Below are positions 1 through 3,437 of a stretch of DNA of 64,000 bases, one piece after another (the stretch's first letter is position 1; the number at the start of each line of letters is the position of its first letter). The stretch lies in the NCBI RefSeq assembly GCF_050920415.1, contig NZ_CP169309.1; one strand, given 5' to 3'. The notes beneath the pieces are model-generated. The model made no database searches and was not told where the DNA came from. It saw only the letters and a program-made list of their open reading frames with translations. The position numbers and the translations under genes are program-made. This DNA is from Escherichia coli (GTDB lineage Bacteria > Pseudomonadota > Gammaproteobacteria > Enterobacterales > Enterobacteriaceae).

Positions 1-407
1 CTTTTGAACCAGTCAATGAACCTAAAAACATTATGTTCGAACATGTCCGAACGGAGTGTGAAAAAACTCCTGACCGTCACGAAGAAACCGACAAGGCATT
101 CGAGGAAATATTCTGGTGTGCAGGCATGCGGAAGGCCGGGAAGAAAAACGCAGCGTCGGCATTCAGAACACAGTTCAGGGAATGGCGTAAAACTACCAGG
201 GGTACGGCAAGCGAGTTTGCCACGATGCTGGCAGAAGACATCGCATGCAGGAATGGTAAGCAGTTCGGATTCGACAGGTTGTTACCATCGAGCTACCTGA
301 ACGGTCAACGCTGGAACGACGAGAAGCCAGAAACTATTCAACCACAATCCAAACCATCATCCGCAATCACCGTATCGAAAACTGGCTACGTGTTTTTCGA
401 CAGGTGA
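1..407 (+). CDS. Phage early/replication-module protein, C-terminal fragment (5' end outside window)
   Basis: Open frame runs from window start to TGA at 405-407; lies directly upstream of the primase-helicase; no family recognised. Confidence 0.4.
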   Translation, partial: FEPVNEPKNIMFEHVRTECEKTPDRHEETDKAFEEIFWCAGMRKAGKKNAASAFRTQFREWRKTTRGTASEFATMLAEDIACRNGKQFGFDRLLPSSYLNGQRWNDEKPETIQPQSKPSSAITVSKTGYVFFDR

Positions 408-409
408 AC

Positions 410-517
410 CATGAAATCAAAAATCAAATCGCTACTGGTCGCTGGTTATAACCACGGCTGGTTAAGTATTTCGTTTGTCGATTTCTGGTTTAAAAATCTC
501 AATCTGAGGGAATCATG
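410..517 (+). CDS. Small hypothetical protein (35 aa)
   Basis: ATG 5 nt after upstream stop with AGGTG-like SD; its stop overlaps primase start (ATGA); absent from ORF track because <60 aa. Confidence 0.3.
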
Positions 518-2395
518 ACGCCAAGTGAACTTAGCGACCTGCTTTGGGCGCAGGTTGACAGGGTGGCTCCGCACCTGTTGCCAAACGGCAAGAAAGAGGG
601 GCATGAGTGGGTTGCCGGTAACGTCAACGGTGACAAGGGAAACAGCCTTAAGGTCAACCTTAGCGGCAAGAAAAAATGGGCTGATTTCGCTGAGGGAGAC
701 GGCGGTGACATGCTTGATTTGTGGATGGCATGTCGTGGAATTAACCTGCATCAGGCTATGCAGGAAGCGAAAGCCTTTCTCGGTATCAAGGATGACGATC
801 ACCATTTCGATGCCAAACGTGAGAAGAAATTCTCCAGACCTGATCGCAAGAAAATCGCCCGCTACGTTACCAGAACAGAATCCCATCTTGAGTACCTGCA
901 ATCGCGTGGCATATCGCCAGAAGTCGTAAAGCGCTACGAGGTTGTCAGCGGCAAGGTGTGGAATGGAGAACGAGAACTTGATGCACTGGTGCTTCCGTAC
1001 AAACGCGATGGTGAGTTGTTGCAGGTCAAGCGAATCAGCACTGAGCGCCCGGACGGGAAGAAAGTCATTATGGCAGAAGGTGATTGTGAACCTTGTCTGT
1101 TCGGATGGCAGGCTCTGGACGCTGGCGTGAGGGCGGTTGTGCTTTGCGAAGGCGAAATTGATTGTATGAGCTATGCGCAATACGGCATCTCGGCGTTATC
1201 CGTGCCGTTTGGTGGAGGAAAAGGCGCTAAGCAGCAGTGGATTGAGTTTGAGTATCACAACCTCGACAGGTTTGAGGAAATATTCATCTCGATGGACGTT
1301 GATGATGTTGGTCGTGAAGCCGCAAGGGAAATCGCAAGCCGACTCGGTGAACATCGTTGCCGTCTTGTTACTCTGCCGTACAAAGACATCAACGAATGCC
1401 TGATGAACGGTGTTACCGAGGATGAAATCTGGCAGTACATCGGCACGGCATCCTACTTCGATCCTGAAGAACTCTACAGCGCGCGAGAGTTTTACCAGGA
1501 CACTATCAACGCTTTCTACGGCAAGCAGCAGTATCTATTTAATCCACCGTGGGAATCTCTGGCAGATAAATTCCAGTTCCGTGAGGCCGAGTTGACGCTG
1601 GTCAATGGTGTGAACGGTCACGGAAAAACGGAGGTTGTCGGGCATATGGCACTTGAGGCAATGCGTCAGGGTGTGAAGACGTGCATCGCGTCACTTGAGC
1701 TGAAGCCTGGTATTCTCCTTAAGCGCCTTACCCGTCAGGCAACGTGCTGCAAGATGCCGCCAGTGCTTGAAATTGACTCTGCATTTAAATTCTATGACGA
1801 AAGACTTTGGGTGTTTGGCCTGACCGGAACGGCGAAAGCCGACAGGTTGATCGAAATATTCGACTACGCTCGCCGCCGATACGGCATCCAGTTATTCATC
1901 ATCGACAGCCTGATGAAATGCGGCATAGGTGACGATGACTATAACGGGCAGAAAGCATTTGTTGACTCGATTTGCGACTTCAAAAACAAAACAAACTCCC
2001 ACGTCATTCTCGTTACTCACTCCAGAAAAGGAGACAGCGAAGAAAAACCAACCGGGAAAATGGACGTAAAAGGCTCTGGAGCGATAACAGACCTGACAGA
2101 CAACCTTTTCATCATCTGGCGTAACAAGGCTCGCGAGAGAGCGTTACAGAGAGTTCAGAGTGGTGAAAAGATGTCAGAGAAGGACGAACAGCTACTGGCA
2201 TCTCCGGCATCTGTTTTGATGCTTGAAAAACAACGTAACGGCGAAGGTTGGGAAGGTGGTGTCCCGTTGTTCCTTGACGAGCAATCGCACCAGTTCCTGC
2301 AACTTGAATCAGGATCGCCTTATAGCTACATCGCCAATATGCCGAAATCGGAATATGACGAGGCGTGGCGACAGGAAAACGTGACGGAGTATTAA
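515..2395 (+). CDS. Phage DNA primase/helicase (Toprim domain fused to DnaB/T7-gp4-like helicase)
   Basis: Toprim acidic motifs (CEGEID, DVDDVG), Walker A GVNGHGKTE, Walker B-like LFIIDSL; 626 aa. Confidence 0.8.
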   Translation: MTPSELSDLLWAQVDRVAPHLLPNGKKEGHEWVAGNVNGDKGNSLKVNLSGKKKWADFAEGDGGDMLDLWMACRGINLHQAMQEAKAFLGIKDDDHHFDAKREKKFSRPDRKKIARYVTRTESHLEYLQSRGISPEVVKRYEVVSGKVWNGERELDALVLPYKRDGELLQVKRISTERPDGKKVIMAEGDCEPCLFGWQALDAGVRAVVLCEGEIDCMSYAQYGISALSVPFGGGKGAKQQWIEFEYHNLDRFEEIFISMDVDDVGREAAREIASRLGEHRCRLVTLPYKDINECLMNGVTEDEIWQYIGTASYFDPEELYSAREFYQDTINAFYGKQQYLFNPPWESLADKFQFREAELTLVNGVNGHGKTEVVGHMALEAMRQGVKTCIASLELKPGILLKRLTRQATCCKMPPVLEIDSAFKFYDERLWVFGLTGTAKADRLIEIFDYARRRYGIQLFIIDSLMKCGIGDDDYNGQKAFVDSICDFKNKTNSHVILVTHSRKGDSEEKPTGKMDVKGSGAITDLTDNLFIIWRNKARERALQRVQSGEKMSEKDEQLLASPASVLMLEKQRNGEGWEGGVPLFLDEQSHQFLQLESGSPYSYIANMPKSEYDEAWRQENVTEY

Positions 2396-2422
2396 ATGAC
2401 CATCTACATCACTGAGCTAATA

Positions 2423-2455
2423 AAAGGCCTGCTGGTAATCGCAGGCCTTTTTATT
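2423..2455 (+). terminator. Rho-independent terminator between primase-helicase and ninB
   Basis: Hairpin AAAGGCCTGC-(loop)-GCAGGCCTTT followed by T-run. Confidence 0.6.
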
Positions 2456-2472
2456 TGGGGGAGAGGGAAGTC

Positions 2473-2913
2473 ATGAAAAAACTAACCTTTGAAATTCGAT
2501 CTCCGGCACATCAGCAAAACGCTATTCACGCGGTACAGCAAATCCTTCCAGACCCAACCAAGCCAATCGTAGTGATCATTCAGGAGCGCAACCGCAGCTT
2601 AGACCAGAATCGGAAGCTTTGGGCTTGCCTTGGTGACGTCTCTCGTCAGGTTGAATGGCATGGGCGTTGGCTGGATGCAGAAAGCTGGAAGTGTGTGTTT
2701 ACCGCAGCATTAAAGCAGCAGGATGTTGTTCCTAACCTTGCCGGGAATGGCTTTGTGGTAATAGGCCAGTCAACCAGCAGGATGCGTGTAGGCGAATTTG
2801 CGGAGCTATTAGAGCTTATACAGGCATTCGGTACAGAGCGTGGCGTTAAGTGGTCAGACGAAGCGCGACTGGCTCTCGAATGGAAAGCGCGATGGGGAGA
2901 TCGGGCTGCATGA
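2473..2913 (+). CDS. ninB: NinB recombination protein
   Basis: Translation MKKLTFEIRSPAHQQNAIHAVQQ... matches lambda NinB as recalled; start at internal ATG 2473 with GGGAGAGGGAAG SD. Confidence 0.9.
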   Translation: MKKLTFEIRSPAHQQNAIHAVQQILPDPTKPIVVIIQERNRSLDQNRKLWACLGDVSRQVEWHGRWLDAESWKCVFTAALKQQDVVPNLAGNGFVVIGQSTSRMRVGEFAELLELIQAFGTERGVKWSDEARLALEWKARWGDRAA

Positions 2914-3437
2914 CTATCAAATCAAATACGCCAGCACACGACAAGGACTGCTGGCAAACGCCGCTTTGGCTTTTTGATGCACTGGATATTGAGTTTGGAT
3001 TCTGGCTGGATTCGGCAGCGAGCGACAAAAACGCTCTGTGCGCTCACTGGCTAACTGAGGCCGACGACGCGCTCAATTCTGAGTGGGTAAGCCACGGTGC
3101 AATCTGGAATAACCCACCGTACAGCAATATCAGGCCGTGGGTGGAAAAAGCCGCTGAGCAGTGTATACAACAGCGACAGACGGTAGTGATGCTTGTGCCA
3201 GAGGATATGTCAGTCGGATGGTTCAGCAAGGCTCTGGAGAGTGTCGACGAAGTTCGTATTATCACTGATGGACGGATTAATTTTATCGAACCATCGACAG
3301 GGCTAGAGAAGAAGGGAAACAGCAAAGGTTCCATGCTGCTGATTTGGCGACCGTTCATCAGTCCTCGACGGATGTTTACTACCGTATCCAAAGCGGCATT
3401 GATGGCGATCGGGCAGGGCGTCAGGAGGGCGGCATGA
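2910..3437 (+). CDS. Phage DNA N6-adenine methyltransferase (Dam-family)
   Basis: NPPY catalytic motif (..[11 protein letters not shown]..); start overlaps ninB stop (ATGA); occupies the ninC/ninD position. Confidence 0.8.

Follow-up and report, generated by a model that had tools for sequence, protein, structure and literature searches.

The first 2.4 kb of the window, by which we mean the whole 64,000-nucleotide stretch analysed from Escherichia coli contig NZ_CP169309.1 (assembly GCF_050920415.1), comprise three close-packed genes encoding the C-terminus of a replication initiator, a 35-residue protein and a 626-residue protein (Table 1). This segment is the right-hand part of an ES18-type replication cassette, designated Eru5 type in Stx phages, and belongs to a P22-like E. 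coli prophage. According to sequence comparison, the module is the gp59/gp60/gp61 cassette of ES18 and recurs in Sf101, mEp043, epsilon34, g341c and SEN22. In relatives, this position falls within the early-right operon, with cII and the initiator on one side and ninA/ninB on the other. The order initiator, 35-codon open reading frame (ORF), primase-helicase and nin is matched, with DNA identities of 97–99% to Sf101, mEp043 and Stx2a_F403 and of 88% to ES18. A preliminary description of this DNA had placed a fused primase-helicase at the replication locus of a prophage that is P22-like and has a lambda-type nin/Q region, an assignment with which our analysis agrees.

Table 1. Features of the replication segment and its downstream border (window coordinates).
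Feature	Position	Strand	Details
Replication initiator gene, C-terminal 134 codons and stop	3..407	+	Frame open from base 3
Mosaic joint within the initiator gene	23..23	.	Left, N-terminal domains differ among relatives; right, shared sequence
Initiator C-terminal tail			Sequence …SAITVSKTGYVFFDR
35-codon gene (ES18 gp60 / phrog_21848)	411..518 (including stop)	+	Close-packed against both neighbours
626-aa bifunctional primase-helicase gene (ES18 gp61 type; T7 gp4/Twinkle superfamily)	515..2395	+	ATG start; assigned by domains, predicted fold and PHROG
N-terminal domain, residues 1–95	515..799	+	DnaG-type zinc-ribbon-like, without zinc ligands
TOPRIM core of the primase domain, residues 209–296	1139..1402	+	E212/D261/D263/D291; Pfam Toprim_2 E 3e-12
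SF4 RecA-type helicase domain	1565..2314	+	Pfam AAA_25 and DnaB_C; alignment to T7 gp4 helicase
Walker A GVNGHGKT, residues 365–372	1607..1630	+	
Other helicase motifs			Walker B D464; H502 (motif H3 His); K519, aligned with R of T7 gp4 LRGSG
26-codon 'NinA' ORF containing the hairpin	2396..2476		NinA annotated at this position in Sf101
Intrinsic-terminator-like hairpin and T-run closing the replication segment	2422..2457	+	RNA fold −20 kcal/mol, z −3.0

Sf101, mEp043 and ES18 carry the same three genes in the same order, with DNA identities of 98.6%, 98.5% and 88.3%, respectively, over window positions 23–2500. Eru5 is a replication type of Stx phages with Stx2a_F403 as its reference phage (PMC8951638), and includes phi24B and Min27; the region encodes an HTH_36 initiator followed by this 'primase', and Stx2a_F403 is 97.1% identical to the window over positions 1–2468. 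Two differences concern the helicase gene and its surroundings: ES18 and epsilon34 carry an extra 92-residue gene (gp62) after the helicase, which the window lacks, and the helicase gene of phi24B is interrupted by a 342-residue intein in the Walker A loop, whereas the window copy is intein-free. The preliminary description presented the module as a new case of unusual grafting. The cassette at the 5′ end of the window is, however, not new: it has been annotated since ES18 and described in the literature (PMC2629481, PMC10307801, PMC8951638), with the P22-like replication module of this kind named a "third type" (PMC10307801). Of 5,426 complete E. coli genomes, 295 (~5%) carry the helicase gene at ≥95% identity, and the Eru5-type module occurs in Stx2a phages of outbreak strains. 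We regard the cassette as one of the alternative replication modules of lambdoid and P22-like phages, already described and common, of small importance as a finding and ordinary except for its 35-residue gene.

Downstream of the helicase gene, the segment is closed by a hairpin within the ninA ORF. The annotations of g341c under the matched stretch list a terminator feature. A scan of positions 1–2700 for promoters and terminators returned nothing above chance; the scanner missed the ninA hairpin, which was folded separately.

Initiator C-terminus and mosaic joint

The initiator frame ends at a TGA (405–407), remains open back to base 3, and shares 99% identity with the last 134 residues of the HTH_36-type 'O' protein of phi24B. 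The gene start therefore lies outside the window, as the preliminary description had proposed. An ATG at base 33, called as the ORF start by the ORF listing, is internal to this frame. Over the aligned part, the C-terminus is 92% identical to that of Sf101 and 90% to that of ES18, and the fragment matches phrog_33384 (E 1e-96) and phrog_270, 'replication initiation protein' (E 7e-32).

Searches for related loci and homologous proteins returned nearly exclusively near-identical copies, which we used to count N-terminal types and small-ORF alleles. Among 82 loci, one initiator C-terminus is found behind three N-terminal types, such that the same C-terminus, small ORF and helicase follow three different DNA-binding domains. 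DNA matches to Sf101, mEp043, ES18, epsilon34 and SEN22 begin at window base 23, whereas those to the Stx phages and APC_JM3.2 begin at base 1. Left of base 23, ES18 and Sf101 encode a Pfam Phage_rep_O N-terminus (E 1e-37 for Sf101). The window instead matches up to base 1 the HTH_36-type initiators of phi24B and APC_JM3.2, the latter a copy of the ES18-type region, with the N-terminus itself outside the window. The ES18 record places a lambda-like ori within gp59, and the phi24B initiator gene contains a 22–24 bp tandem repeat just upstream of the point at which the window starts. The DNA-binding N-terminal domain is located upstream of the window, together with a probable iteron origin.

The AF2 model of the initiator fragment predicts a three-helix core at residues 25–100 with disordered flanks, at medium confidence (pLDDT 68; 21-sequence alignment). 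A Foldseek search of this model against the PDB yielded nothing below E 2.9, leaving no fold assignable, and the C-terminal domain had no match in Pfam or NCBIfam. Homology to the C-terminal half of lambda O was considered and rejected (BLASTP E 0.75; hhalign probability 0.1%). A role of this domain as a helicase-specific adaptor was weakened by its homologues: in phage Skulduggery, a DnaC-like loader comes next, and in Vibrio phage D65, a gene that encodes no helicase. As the domain is not exclusive to a helicase partner, its linkage with the helicase may reflect mere adjacency.

The 626-residue primase-helicase

Judged from its sequence and predicted model, the 626-residue protein retains the full set of TOPRIM and helicase catalytic motifs and is predicted with high confidence to adopt a T7 gp4/Twinkle-like fold. 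In the helicase half, the Pfam AAA_25 and DnaB_C matches span residues 355–594, the former above its Pfam cutoff (28.0 vs 27) and the latter just under it (23.8 vs 27). Sequence matches in the PDB included T7 gp4 (E 3e-23) and Twinkle (E 6e-14), and phrog_239, 'DNA primase/helicase', matched at E 2e-171. The AF2 model has a mean pLDDT of 94.7, and its best Foldseek match was T7 gp4 chain 5ikn_J (E 1e-26; TMt 0.74), alongside Twinkle 7t8c (E 4e-25). Using tblastn, we found the protein to be 100% identical to its mEp043 counterpart; the ES18 record describes gp61 as "similar to phage T7 gene 4". The preliminary description gave this Toprim and DnaB/T7-gp4-like helicase ORF with exact coordinates, and its domain content was borne out, well beyond chance, by Pfam, the PDB matches and the AF2/Foldseek results. 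Profile searches of the kind that it had suggested as a check matched the protein to Toprim_2, AAA_25 and phrog_239.

PGAP names the protein merely 'toprim domain-containing protein', which would accommodate a role other than that of the prophage's replicative helicase, e.g., in superinfection exclusion, anti-defence or satellite mobilisation. Such a role is extremely improbable: in every relative examined, the gene directly follows the initiator, in the slot expected for a helicase or loader, and the interval from cII to Q contains no second gene of either kind. The initiator–helicase pairing holds in distant relatives too.

We counted residue conservation over 114 relatives at 34–60% identity. 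The TOPRIM residues E212, D261, D263 and D291, which align with the T7 gp4 motifs EGEID, DMDEAG and KDANE, are present in 112–113 of these proteins, and K371, D464 and H502 are invariant. Position 519 (finger), a lysine in the window protein, is lysine in 69 relatives and arginine in 33. Residues 1–95 contain no Cys column conserved across the 114 relatives, and hence no Cys4 zinc-binding domain, yet NCBIfam TIGR01391 (dnaG) aligns to residues 26–143 (E 9e-10, well below its cutoff). On these grounds, we place the N-terminal domain in a zinc-less state, as in metazoan Twinkle, whose N-terminal domain is likewise zinc-less. In the AF2 model, the N-terminus forms a beta-ribbon followed by helices, and its G/S/W/D motif columns are >90% conserved.

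The lack of conserved zinc-binding cysteines throughout the 114 relatives, together with a kinship to Twinkle as clear in structure and sequence as that to T7 gp4, would also suit a protein acting as a helicase only, its primase half being a scaffold devoid of catalysis, as in metazoan Twinkle, with priming left to host DnaG. We consider this unlikely, as the four TOPRIM metal ligands are kept almost without exception and the zinc-less N-terminal domain ranks with the most strongly conserved portions of the sequence, a pattern expected from active-site selection and not from a decayed domain. An active primase joined to a helicase is thus our preferred reading. The literature that we searched contained no biochemical or genetic work on the ES18-type primase-helicase family or on its intein.

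The 35-codon gene

The small ORF was recognised in the preliminary description, although its coordinates (410..517) were one base off. Its TGA (516–518) overlaps the helicase ATG (515–517) as ATGA. Shine-Dalgarno-like sequences are found 4 nt upstream of both starts, AGGTG (402–406) before the small ORF and GAGGG (506–510) before the helicase. Such tight packing would help tie together expression of the initiator, 35-codon and helicase genes. The same description reported the ORF as unannotated, which is accurate for RefSeq (PGAP), where only the two flanking genes are annotated across the region, but not for several phage records, in which it appears (ES18 gp60, epsilon34 gp51, g341c gp46, SaltyDalty, LMessi, CharmingMan and EKP1). 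In lambda, the operon position of this gene is held by P, a position that G39P also occupies in SPP1.

Relatives of the small ORF were sought using tblastn against phages and PHROGs. An ORF of 35 codons lies between the initiator and helicase genes in 8/8 module variants examined, down to 53% nucleotide identity, and its length and position are kept even where the module helicases are only ~60% identical. The window copy matches phrog_21848 at E 4e-26 (residues 1–34 of a 35-position profile), and the Fraca-type copy does so at E 2e-9. The conservation in homologous modules that the preliminary description had suggested checking was thereby confirmed. Changes are concentrated at third codon positions, and informative pairwise dN/dS values range from 0.09 to 0.54, synonymous sites being saturated in the most distant pairs. 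Fifteen residues of the protein are invariant, the AGYN core among them.

Several observations could nonetheless be accommodated by an ORF without a functional protein product, i.e., a chance-open spacer, a coupling leader with an irrelevant peptide, or a frame overlying an RNA or DNA element. At 35 codons, the ORF is very short; its product had no match in Pfam or NCBIfam; its last codons are constrained by the Shine-Dalgarno sequence of the helicase; and two alleles, 23% apart in nucleotides, occur between near-identical flanks, the records of phi24B, Min27 and F403/F451 carrying the other allele, 71% identical to that of the window. In addition, the region folds better in the window copy than shuffled sequence does (z −2.6). 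This fold is not conserved, the consensus reaching only −3.7 kcal/mol with 7 pairs, and an RNA element was accordingly rejected. Maintenance of exactly 35 codons at the same position across the eight variants, along with the third-position changes, the dN/dS values and the invariant residues, makes all of these non-protein explanations quite improbable. On the pattern of substitutions, we conclude that the ORF is a real gene, the product of which is under purifying selection.

Small-ORF carriers form one clade on the helicase tree, and the helicase relatives checked from Vibrio, Pseudomonas and metagenomes lack the gene, a gap that the non-protein explanations could also claim in their favour. 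From this distribution, the gene appears to have been gained once, in the enterobacterial branch of the helicase family. As the Vibrio, Pseudomonas and metagenomic relatives work without it, the gene is not a core requirement. Our best guess, held with low confidence, is that the protein may assist the helicase as a small accessory factor, in its loading, assembly or regulation. More specifically, and only tentatively, it might be a dedicated replication accessory factor, serving as a minimal loader or adaptor, either to link the initiator with the helicase or to fit the helicase to the enterobacterial replisome. For specialists, the interest lies in a gene that is, by its substitution pattern, clearly under purifying selection and restricted to one branch of the family.

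Proposed mechanism and comparison with known replication systems

In the mechanism we propose, the initiator would open the origin after binding to repeats that its own gene contains, a short way upstream of the window. The phage's own hexameric primase-helicase would be loaded there, in place of host DnaB delivered by a lambda-P-type loader. The helicase would unwind DNA 5′→3′ while its TOPRIM domain lays down RNA primers, with host Pol III carrying out synthesis. Loading of a self-priming helicase of its own would spare the module the need for host DnaB/DnaC, probably also for DnaG, and for the chaperone-dependent release that lambda P requires. We infer the primase activity, the helicase polarity, the independence from host DnaB and DnaG, and the contact between initiator and helicase. 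If the module indeed frees the phage from host DnaB, DnaC, DnaG and DnaK/J, it would be relevant to the biology of Stx-phage induction. For the model as a whole, namely an ES18/Eru5-type cassette with its own primase-helicase loaded instead of P-delivered DnaB and with a genuine 35-residue protein, we estimate a probability of roughly 0.8.

The window protein shares with T7 gp4 and Twinkle the arrangement of a DnaG-type TOPRIM primase domain, a linker and a RecA-type SF4 helicase in a single chain. The catalytic motifs can be aligned, and the predicted fold agrees as well, with TM-scores reaching 0.74 when normalised by the T7 gp4 target. Sequence identity is only about 21%. T7 gp4 uses a Cys4 zinc site for template recognition, which the window protein lacks, and the arginine of its LRGSG motif is replaced by lysine. 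In contrast to T7, the phage concerned here is temperate, has an initiator that binds the origin and encodes no DNA polymerase of its own.

Compared with lambda O/P and P22 gp18/gp12, the cassette occupies the same operon position and follows the same logic, an initiator followed by a helicase function. P22 gp12 is DnaB-like and has no primase domain, whereas the window helicase carries a Toprim domain and matches DnaB_C only below the Pfam cutoff; primase-helicases of the present type have been reported to share no homology with the DnaB-like helicase found in P22-type modules (PMC10307801). No homologue of lambda P, DnaB or DnaC was found in the replication slot of Sf101, ES18 or phi24B, and the window has no P homologue either, both the 35-codon ORF and the Toprim/SF4 protein that follow the initiator being unlike P. 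Initiators of the ES18/epsilon34 type share the origin-binding N-terminus of lambda O, with 94% identity (PMC2629481). The view of the preliminary description that this module stands in place of lambda O/P consequently applies to the P slot but not to O, since an origin-binding initiator, of either Phage_rep_O or HTH_36 type, is retained. Relative to lambda, the module thus appears to keep its initiator and to replace only the P loader and the dependence on host DnaB.

Gene order and occurrence of the replication cassette

Within the window, the cassette comprises the 3′ end of an initiator gene, a small open reading frame (ORF) and a primase-helicase gene. The last has the 626 codons reported in the preliminary description, which had also recognized the small ORF, placing it one base too low at 410..517. 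The helicase ATG (515-517) overlaps the TGA of the small ORF (516-518), and Shine-Dalgarno-like sequences lie four bases before each start (AGGTG at 402-406 for the small ORF, GAGGG at 506-510 for the helicase), a tight packing that would help to couple their expression and that of the initiator gene. The initiator residues encoded in the window share 99% identity with the C-terminal end of the phi24B protein; the ATG listed at base 33 by the ORF search is therefore internal, and the gene starts outside the window, as had been proposed.

Coordinates of the cassette genes in the window and of phage records matched by megablast
Feature or record	Window coordinates	Strand	Identity	Source
Initiator 3′ end, 134 residues	frame open from base 3 to TGA 405-407	+		raw sequence
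Small ORF, 35 codons	411..518	+		ORF listing and raw sequence
Primase-helicase ORF, 626 codons	515..2395	+		ORF listing and raw sequence
Sf101	23..2500		98.6%	megablast
mEp043	23..2500		98.5%	megablast
APC_JM3.2	1..2500		96.9%	megablast
Stx2a_F403, phi24B	1..2468		97.1%	megablast
Min27	1..2468		96.9%	megablast
SEN22	23..2500		89.6%	megablast
ES18, epsilon34, g341c	23..2500		~88%	megablast

Using megablast with window 1..2500 as query, we matched 418 phage records, 39 of which cover most of it. In the ES18 record, gp59 is lambda-gpO-like with an internal "similar to lambda ori" feature, gp60 (35 aa) is listed with function unknown, and gp61 is labelled "putative primase/helicase; similar to phage T7 gene 4". 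The epsilon34 paper describes an "ES18 DNA replication gene region" and an initiator whose N-terminus shares 94% identity with residues 17-148 of lambda gpO (PMC2629481); another description of the module also names ES18 (PMC10307801). In Stx phages, an HTH_36 protein with a primase constitutes the "Eru5" replication type (PMC8951638), whose reference phage, Stx2a_F403, is among the best matches to the window. Of 5,426 complete E. coli genomes, 295 carry the helicase gene (≥95% identity). The window itself opens with 25 kb of P22-like (Lederbergvirus) prophage, nearest to APC_JM3.2. Given these descriptions and this context, the cassette is already known and common, and its mosaic setting has likewise been described. 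The preliminary description, which presented it as a third type of replication module, was accurate as an observation and is partly supported as an interpretation; the sole point of interest left in the cassette is the role of the conserved 35-aa gene.

Downstream, a 26-codon 'NinA' ORF (2396..2476), annotated in Sf101, is mostly filled by a strong terminator-like hairpin (2422..2451, -20 kcal/mol, z -3.0) followed by the T-run TTTTTATTT; a consensus scanner did not detect this hairpin. The g341c annotations beneath the matched stretch include a terminator feature, and the 'NinA' ORF may be a mere by-product of a tR2-like terminator. An extra gene of ~90 aa separates helicase and ninA in ES18 (gp62, L002:6374-6652 of the ES18 locus; no Pfam match), epsilon34, g341c and phi24B, and is missing from the window (2395 to 2396), Sf101 and mEp043. 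A 195-codon ORF at 2850..3437, overlapping the ninB 3′ end in another frame, is the counterpart of an Sf101 gene annotated as DNA methyltransferase.

The initiator and its variable N-terminus

The preliminary description had set the module apart from lambda O/P, a statement that needs correcting, as the module keeps an origin-binding initiator. In 82 related loci, the N-terminus joined to a common C-terminal region of ~125 residues comes in three forms: Phage_rep_O as in Sf101 (Pfam E 1e-37), a domain close to that of lambda O as in ES18, and a winged helix of the HTH_36 family (E 5e-14). The mosaic joint is near window base 23, and the window matches HTH_36-type genes as far as base 1. In phi24B, the initiator gene contains a 22-24 bp tandem repeat (2.9 copies) ending ~15 bp upstream of the equivalent of window base 1, which is likely an iteron array. 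This repeat (L004:2922-2985 of the phi24B locus) encodes a Gly/Ala-rich linker. The module's HTH_36-type initiators measure 243, 250/251, 258, 265, 272, 279-282, 286-288 and 293-298 aa, a spread that resembles a polymorphism in the number of origin iterons within coding sequence.

For the C-terminal domain, we detected no similarity to the C-terminal half of lambda O, no Pfam family and no structural match. Its homologues lie ahead of the same helicase family in several Vibrio phages, ValSw3-3 among them. Its reading as a helicase-specific adaptor is weakened by Pseudomonas phage Skulduggery, where a homologue is followed by a DnaC-like loader, and by Vibrio phage D65, where the next gene does not encode a helicase.

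Conservation of the 35-aa gene

The small ORF was found by tblastn in 44 phage records as two close alleles, 71% identical to one another. Remoter copies (46-51% identical) lie directly upstream of helicases ~60% identical to that of the window, in Fraca, SaltyDalty, LMessi, CharmingMan and a record named Elizabethkingia phage EKP1. All eight variants have 35 codons and sit between initiator stop and helicase start, overlapping or within 3 nt of each. Differences fall mostly at third codon positions, and Nei-Gojobori dN/dS in informative pairs ranges from 0.09 to 0.54, mostly ≤0.3; in the remotest pairs, saturated synonymous sites leave no computable ratio. Fifteen residues are invariant (MK...K..L.AGYN.G.L...FV...F....LR), and the protein belongs to PHROG family phrog_21848, of unknown function (E 4e-26 for the window copy, 2e-9 for a Fraca-type copy). 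As RNA, the window copy folds somewhat more stably than shuffled versions (z -2.6); RNAalifold found no conserved RNA structure over the eight variants (-3.7 kcal/mol). The final codons also serve as the helicase Shine-Dalgarno sequence, which explains part of the conservation, not all of it.

The small ORF is absent from relatives in Vibrio (helicase ~59% identical), Pseudomonas (41-43%) and two metagenomic/run assemblies (44-47%), where the initiator stop directly abuts or overlaps the helicase start. In a neighbour-joining helicase tree its carriers form one clade, sister to the Vibrio clade, a topology suggesting that it was gained once and then retained. The check proposed in the preliminary description, conservation of the small ORF in homologous modules, thus comes out in its favour: kept in all eight module variants, it is a real gene, though not one needed by the whole helicase family.

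Allele A (window, ES18) occurs in 69 loci and allele B (phi24B, epsilon34) in 9. Comparing window 411..518 with L004:3411-3518 and L003:445-552, another related locus, we found only 77% nucleotide identity between alleles, yet the following helicases are ~98% identical in protein (outside the intein) and the flanking initiator C-termini ~99%. Each allele occurs with both E. coli-type and Salmonella-type helicases. This pattern implies either recombination on a very local scale or a balanced polymorphism of long standing.

The EKP1 record (OM284015.1) gives Elizabethkingia (Bacteroidota) as the host. Its module is of a typical enterobacterial kind: alongside the 35-aa ORF and an antitermination protein, it has a helicase sharing 85-90% identity with the Fraca and SaltyDalty proteins, both from E. 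coli phages. The host assignment therefore looks doubtful.

The primase-helicase and its relatives

Pfam places Toprim_2 at residues 209-296 (E 3e-12) and AAA_25/DnaB_C at residues 355-594 of the 626-aa protein. By sequence, the nearest solved structures are T7 gp4 (E 3e-23, residues 191-539 aligned) and Twinkle (E 6e-14). An exhaustive HMMER search returned 853 clusters at E < 1e-30 (50%-identity representatives), the majority 580-650 aa long and aligning end to end. In an alignment of 114 relatives (34-60% identity), the TOPRIM ligands E212, D261, D263 and D291, Walker A K371, Walker B D464 and motif-H3 H502 show little or no variation. These conserved active-site residues speak against the main rival reading, in which primase activity would have been lost as in Twinkle.

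The AlphaFold2 model built on this alignment (mean pLDDT 94.7) has T7 gp4 (5ikn_J, E 1e-26, TM 0.74 on target) and Twinkle as top Foldseek neighbours, with DnaB helicases and Aquifex DnaG ranking lower. Residues 1-95, strongly conserved among relatives, form a beta-ribbon followed by helices and match the dnaG model TIGR01391 in its N-terminal region (E 9e-10, a score well short of the family cutoff). The alignment shows no conserved cysteine column here, and we conclude that this is the DnaG/gp4 zinc-binding domain in a zinc-less form. The Cys4 expected of a gp4/Twinkle-type primase-helicase was not found; sequence, motifs and fold otherwise agree with an enzyme of this kind, whose activity is predicted.

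The window copy is intein-free. The phi24B 'P' gene (L004:3518-6424) is the same helicase gene with a 342-aa in-frame intein (Hint and LAGLIDADG homing-endonuclease domains) inserted exactly after Walker A GHGK, at window residue 371/372 (nt ~1627-1630). The intein starts Ala-Cys-Pro and ends Thr-His-Asn ahead of Thr; a block-B-like DHLW contributes a Trp and a block-F-like CLCIMV a Cys, and by these sequence features it looks like a class-3 intein. Min27 and F403/F451 matches are fragmented over a longer span, suggesting the same insertion, and distant relatives of 958-1052 aa (P0020, P0032, P0061, P0119) likewise break at residue 372.

Gene content, motifs, predicted fold, synteny and selection are what the analysis shows. 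By analogy with lambda O/P, T7 gp4 and SF4 helicases, the initiator would bind repeats within its own gene and open the origin, where the phage primase-helicase would assemble in place of P-delivered DnaB, move 5′→3′ and prime through its TOPRIM domain, with host Pol III presumably synthesizing DNA; the 35-aa protein might, at a guess, be an accessory factor acting alongside the helicase. Twinkle and T7 gp4 are kin of this helicase in both fold and sequence. It differs from gp4 at K519 (nt 2069-2071), where gp4 has the Arg of its LRGSG motif, the arginine finger; among the 114 relatives, 69 have Lys at this position and 33 have Arg.
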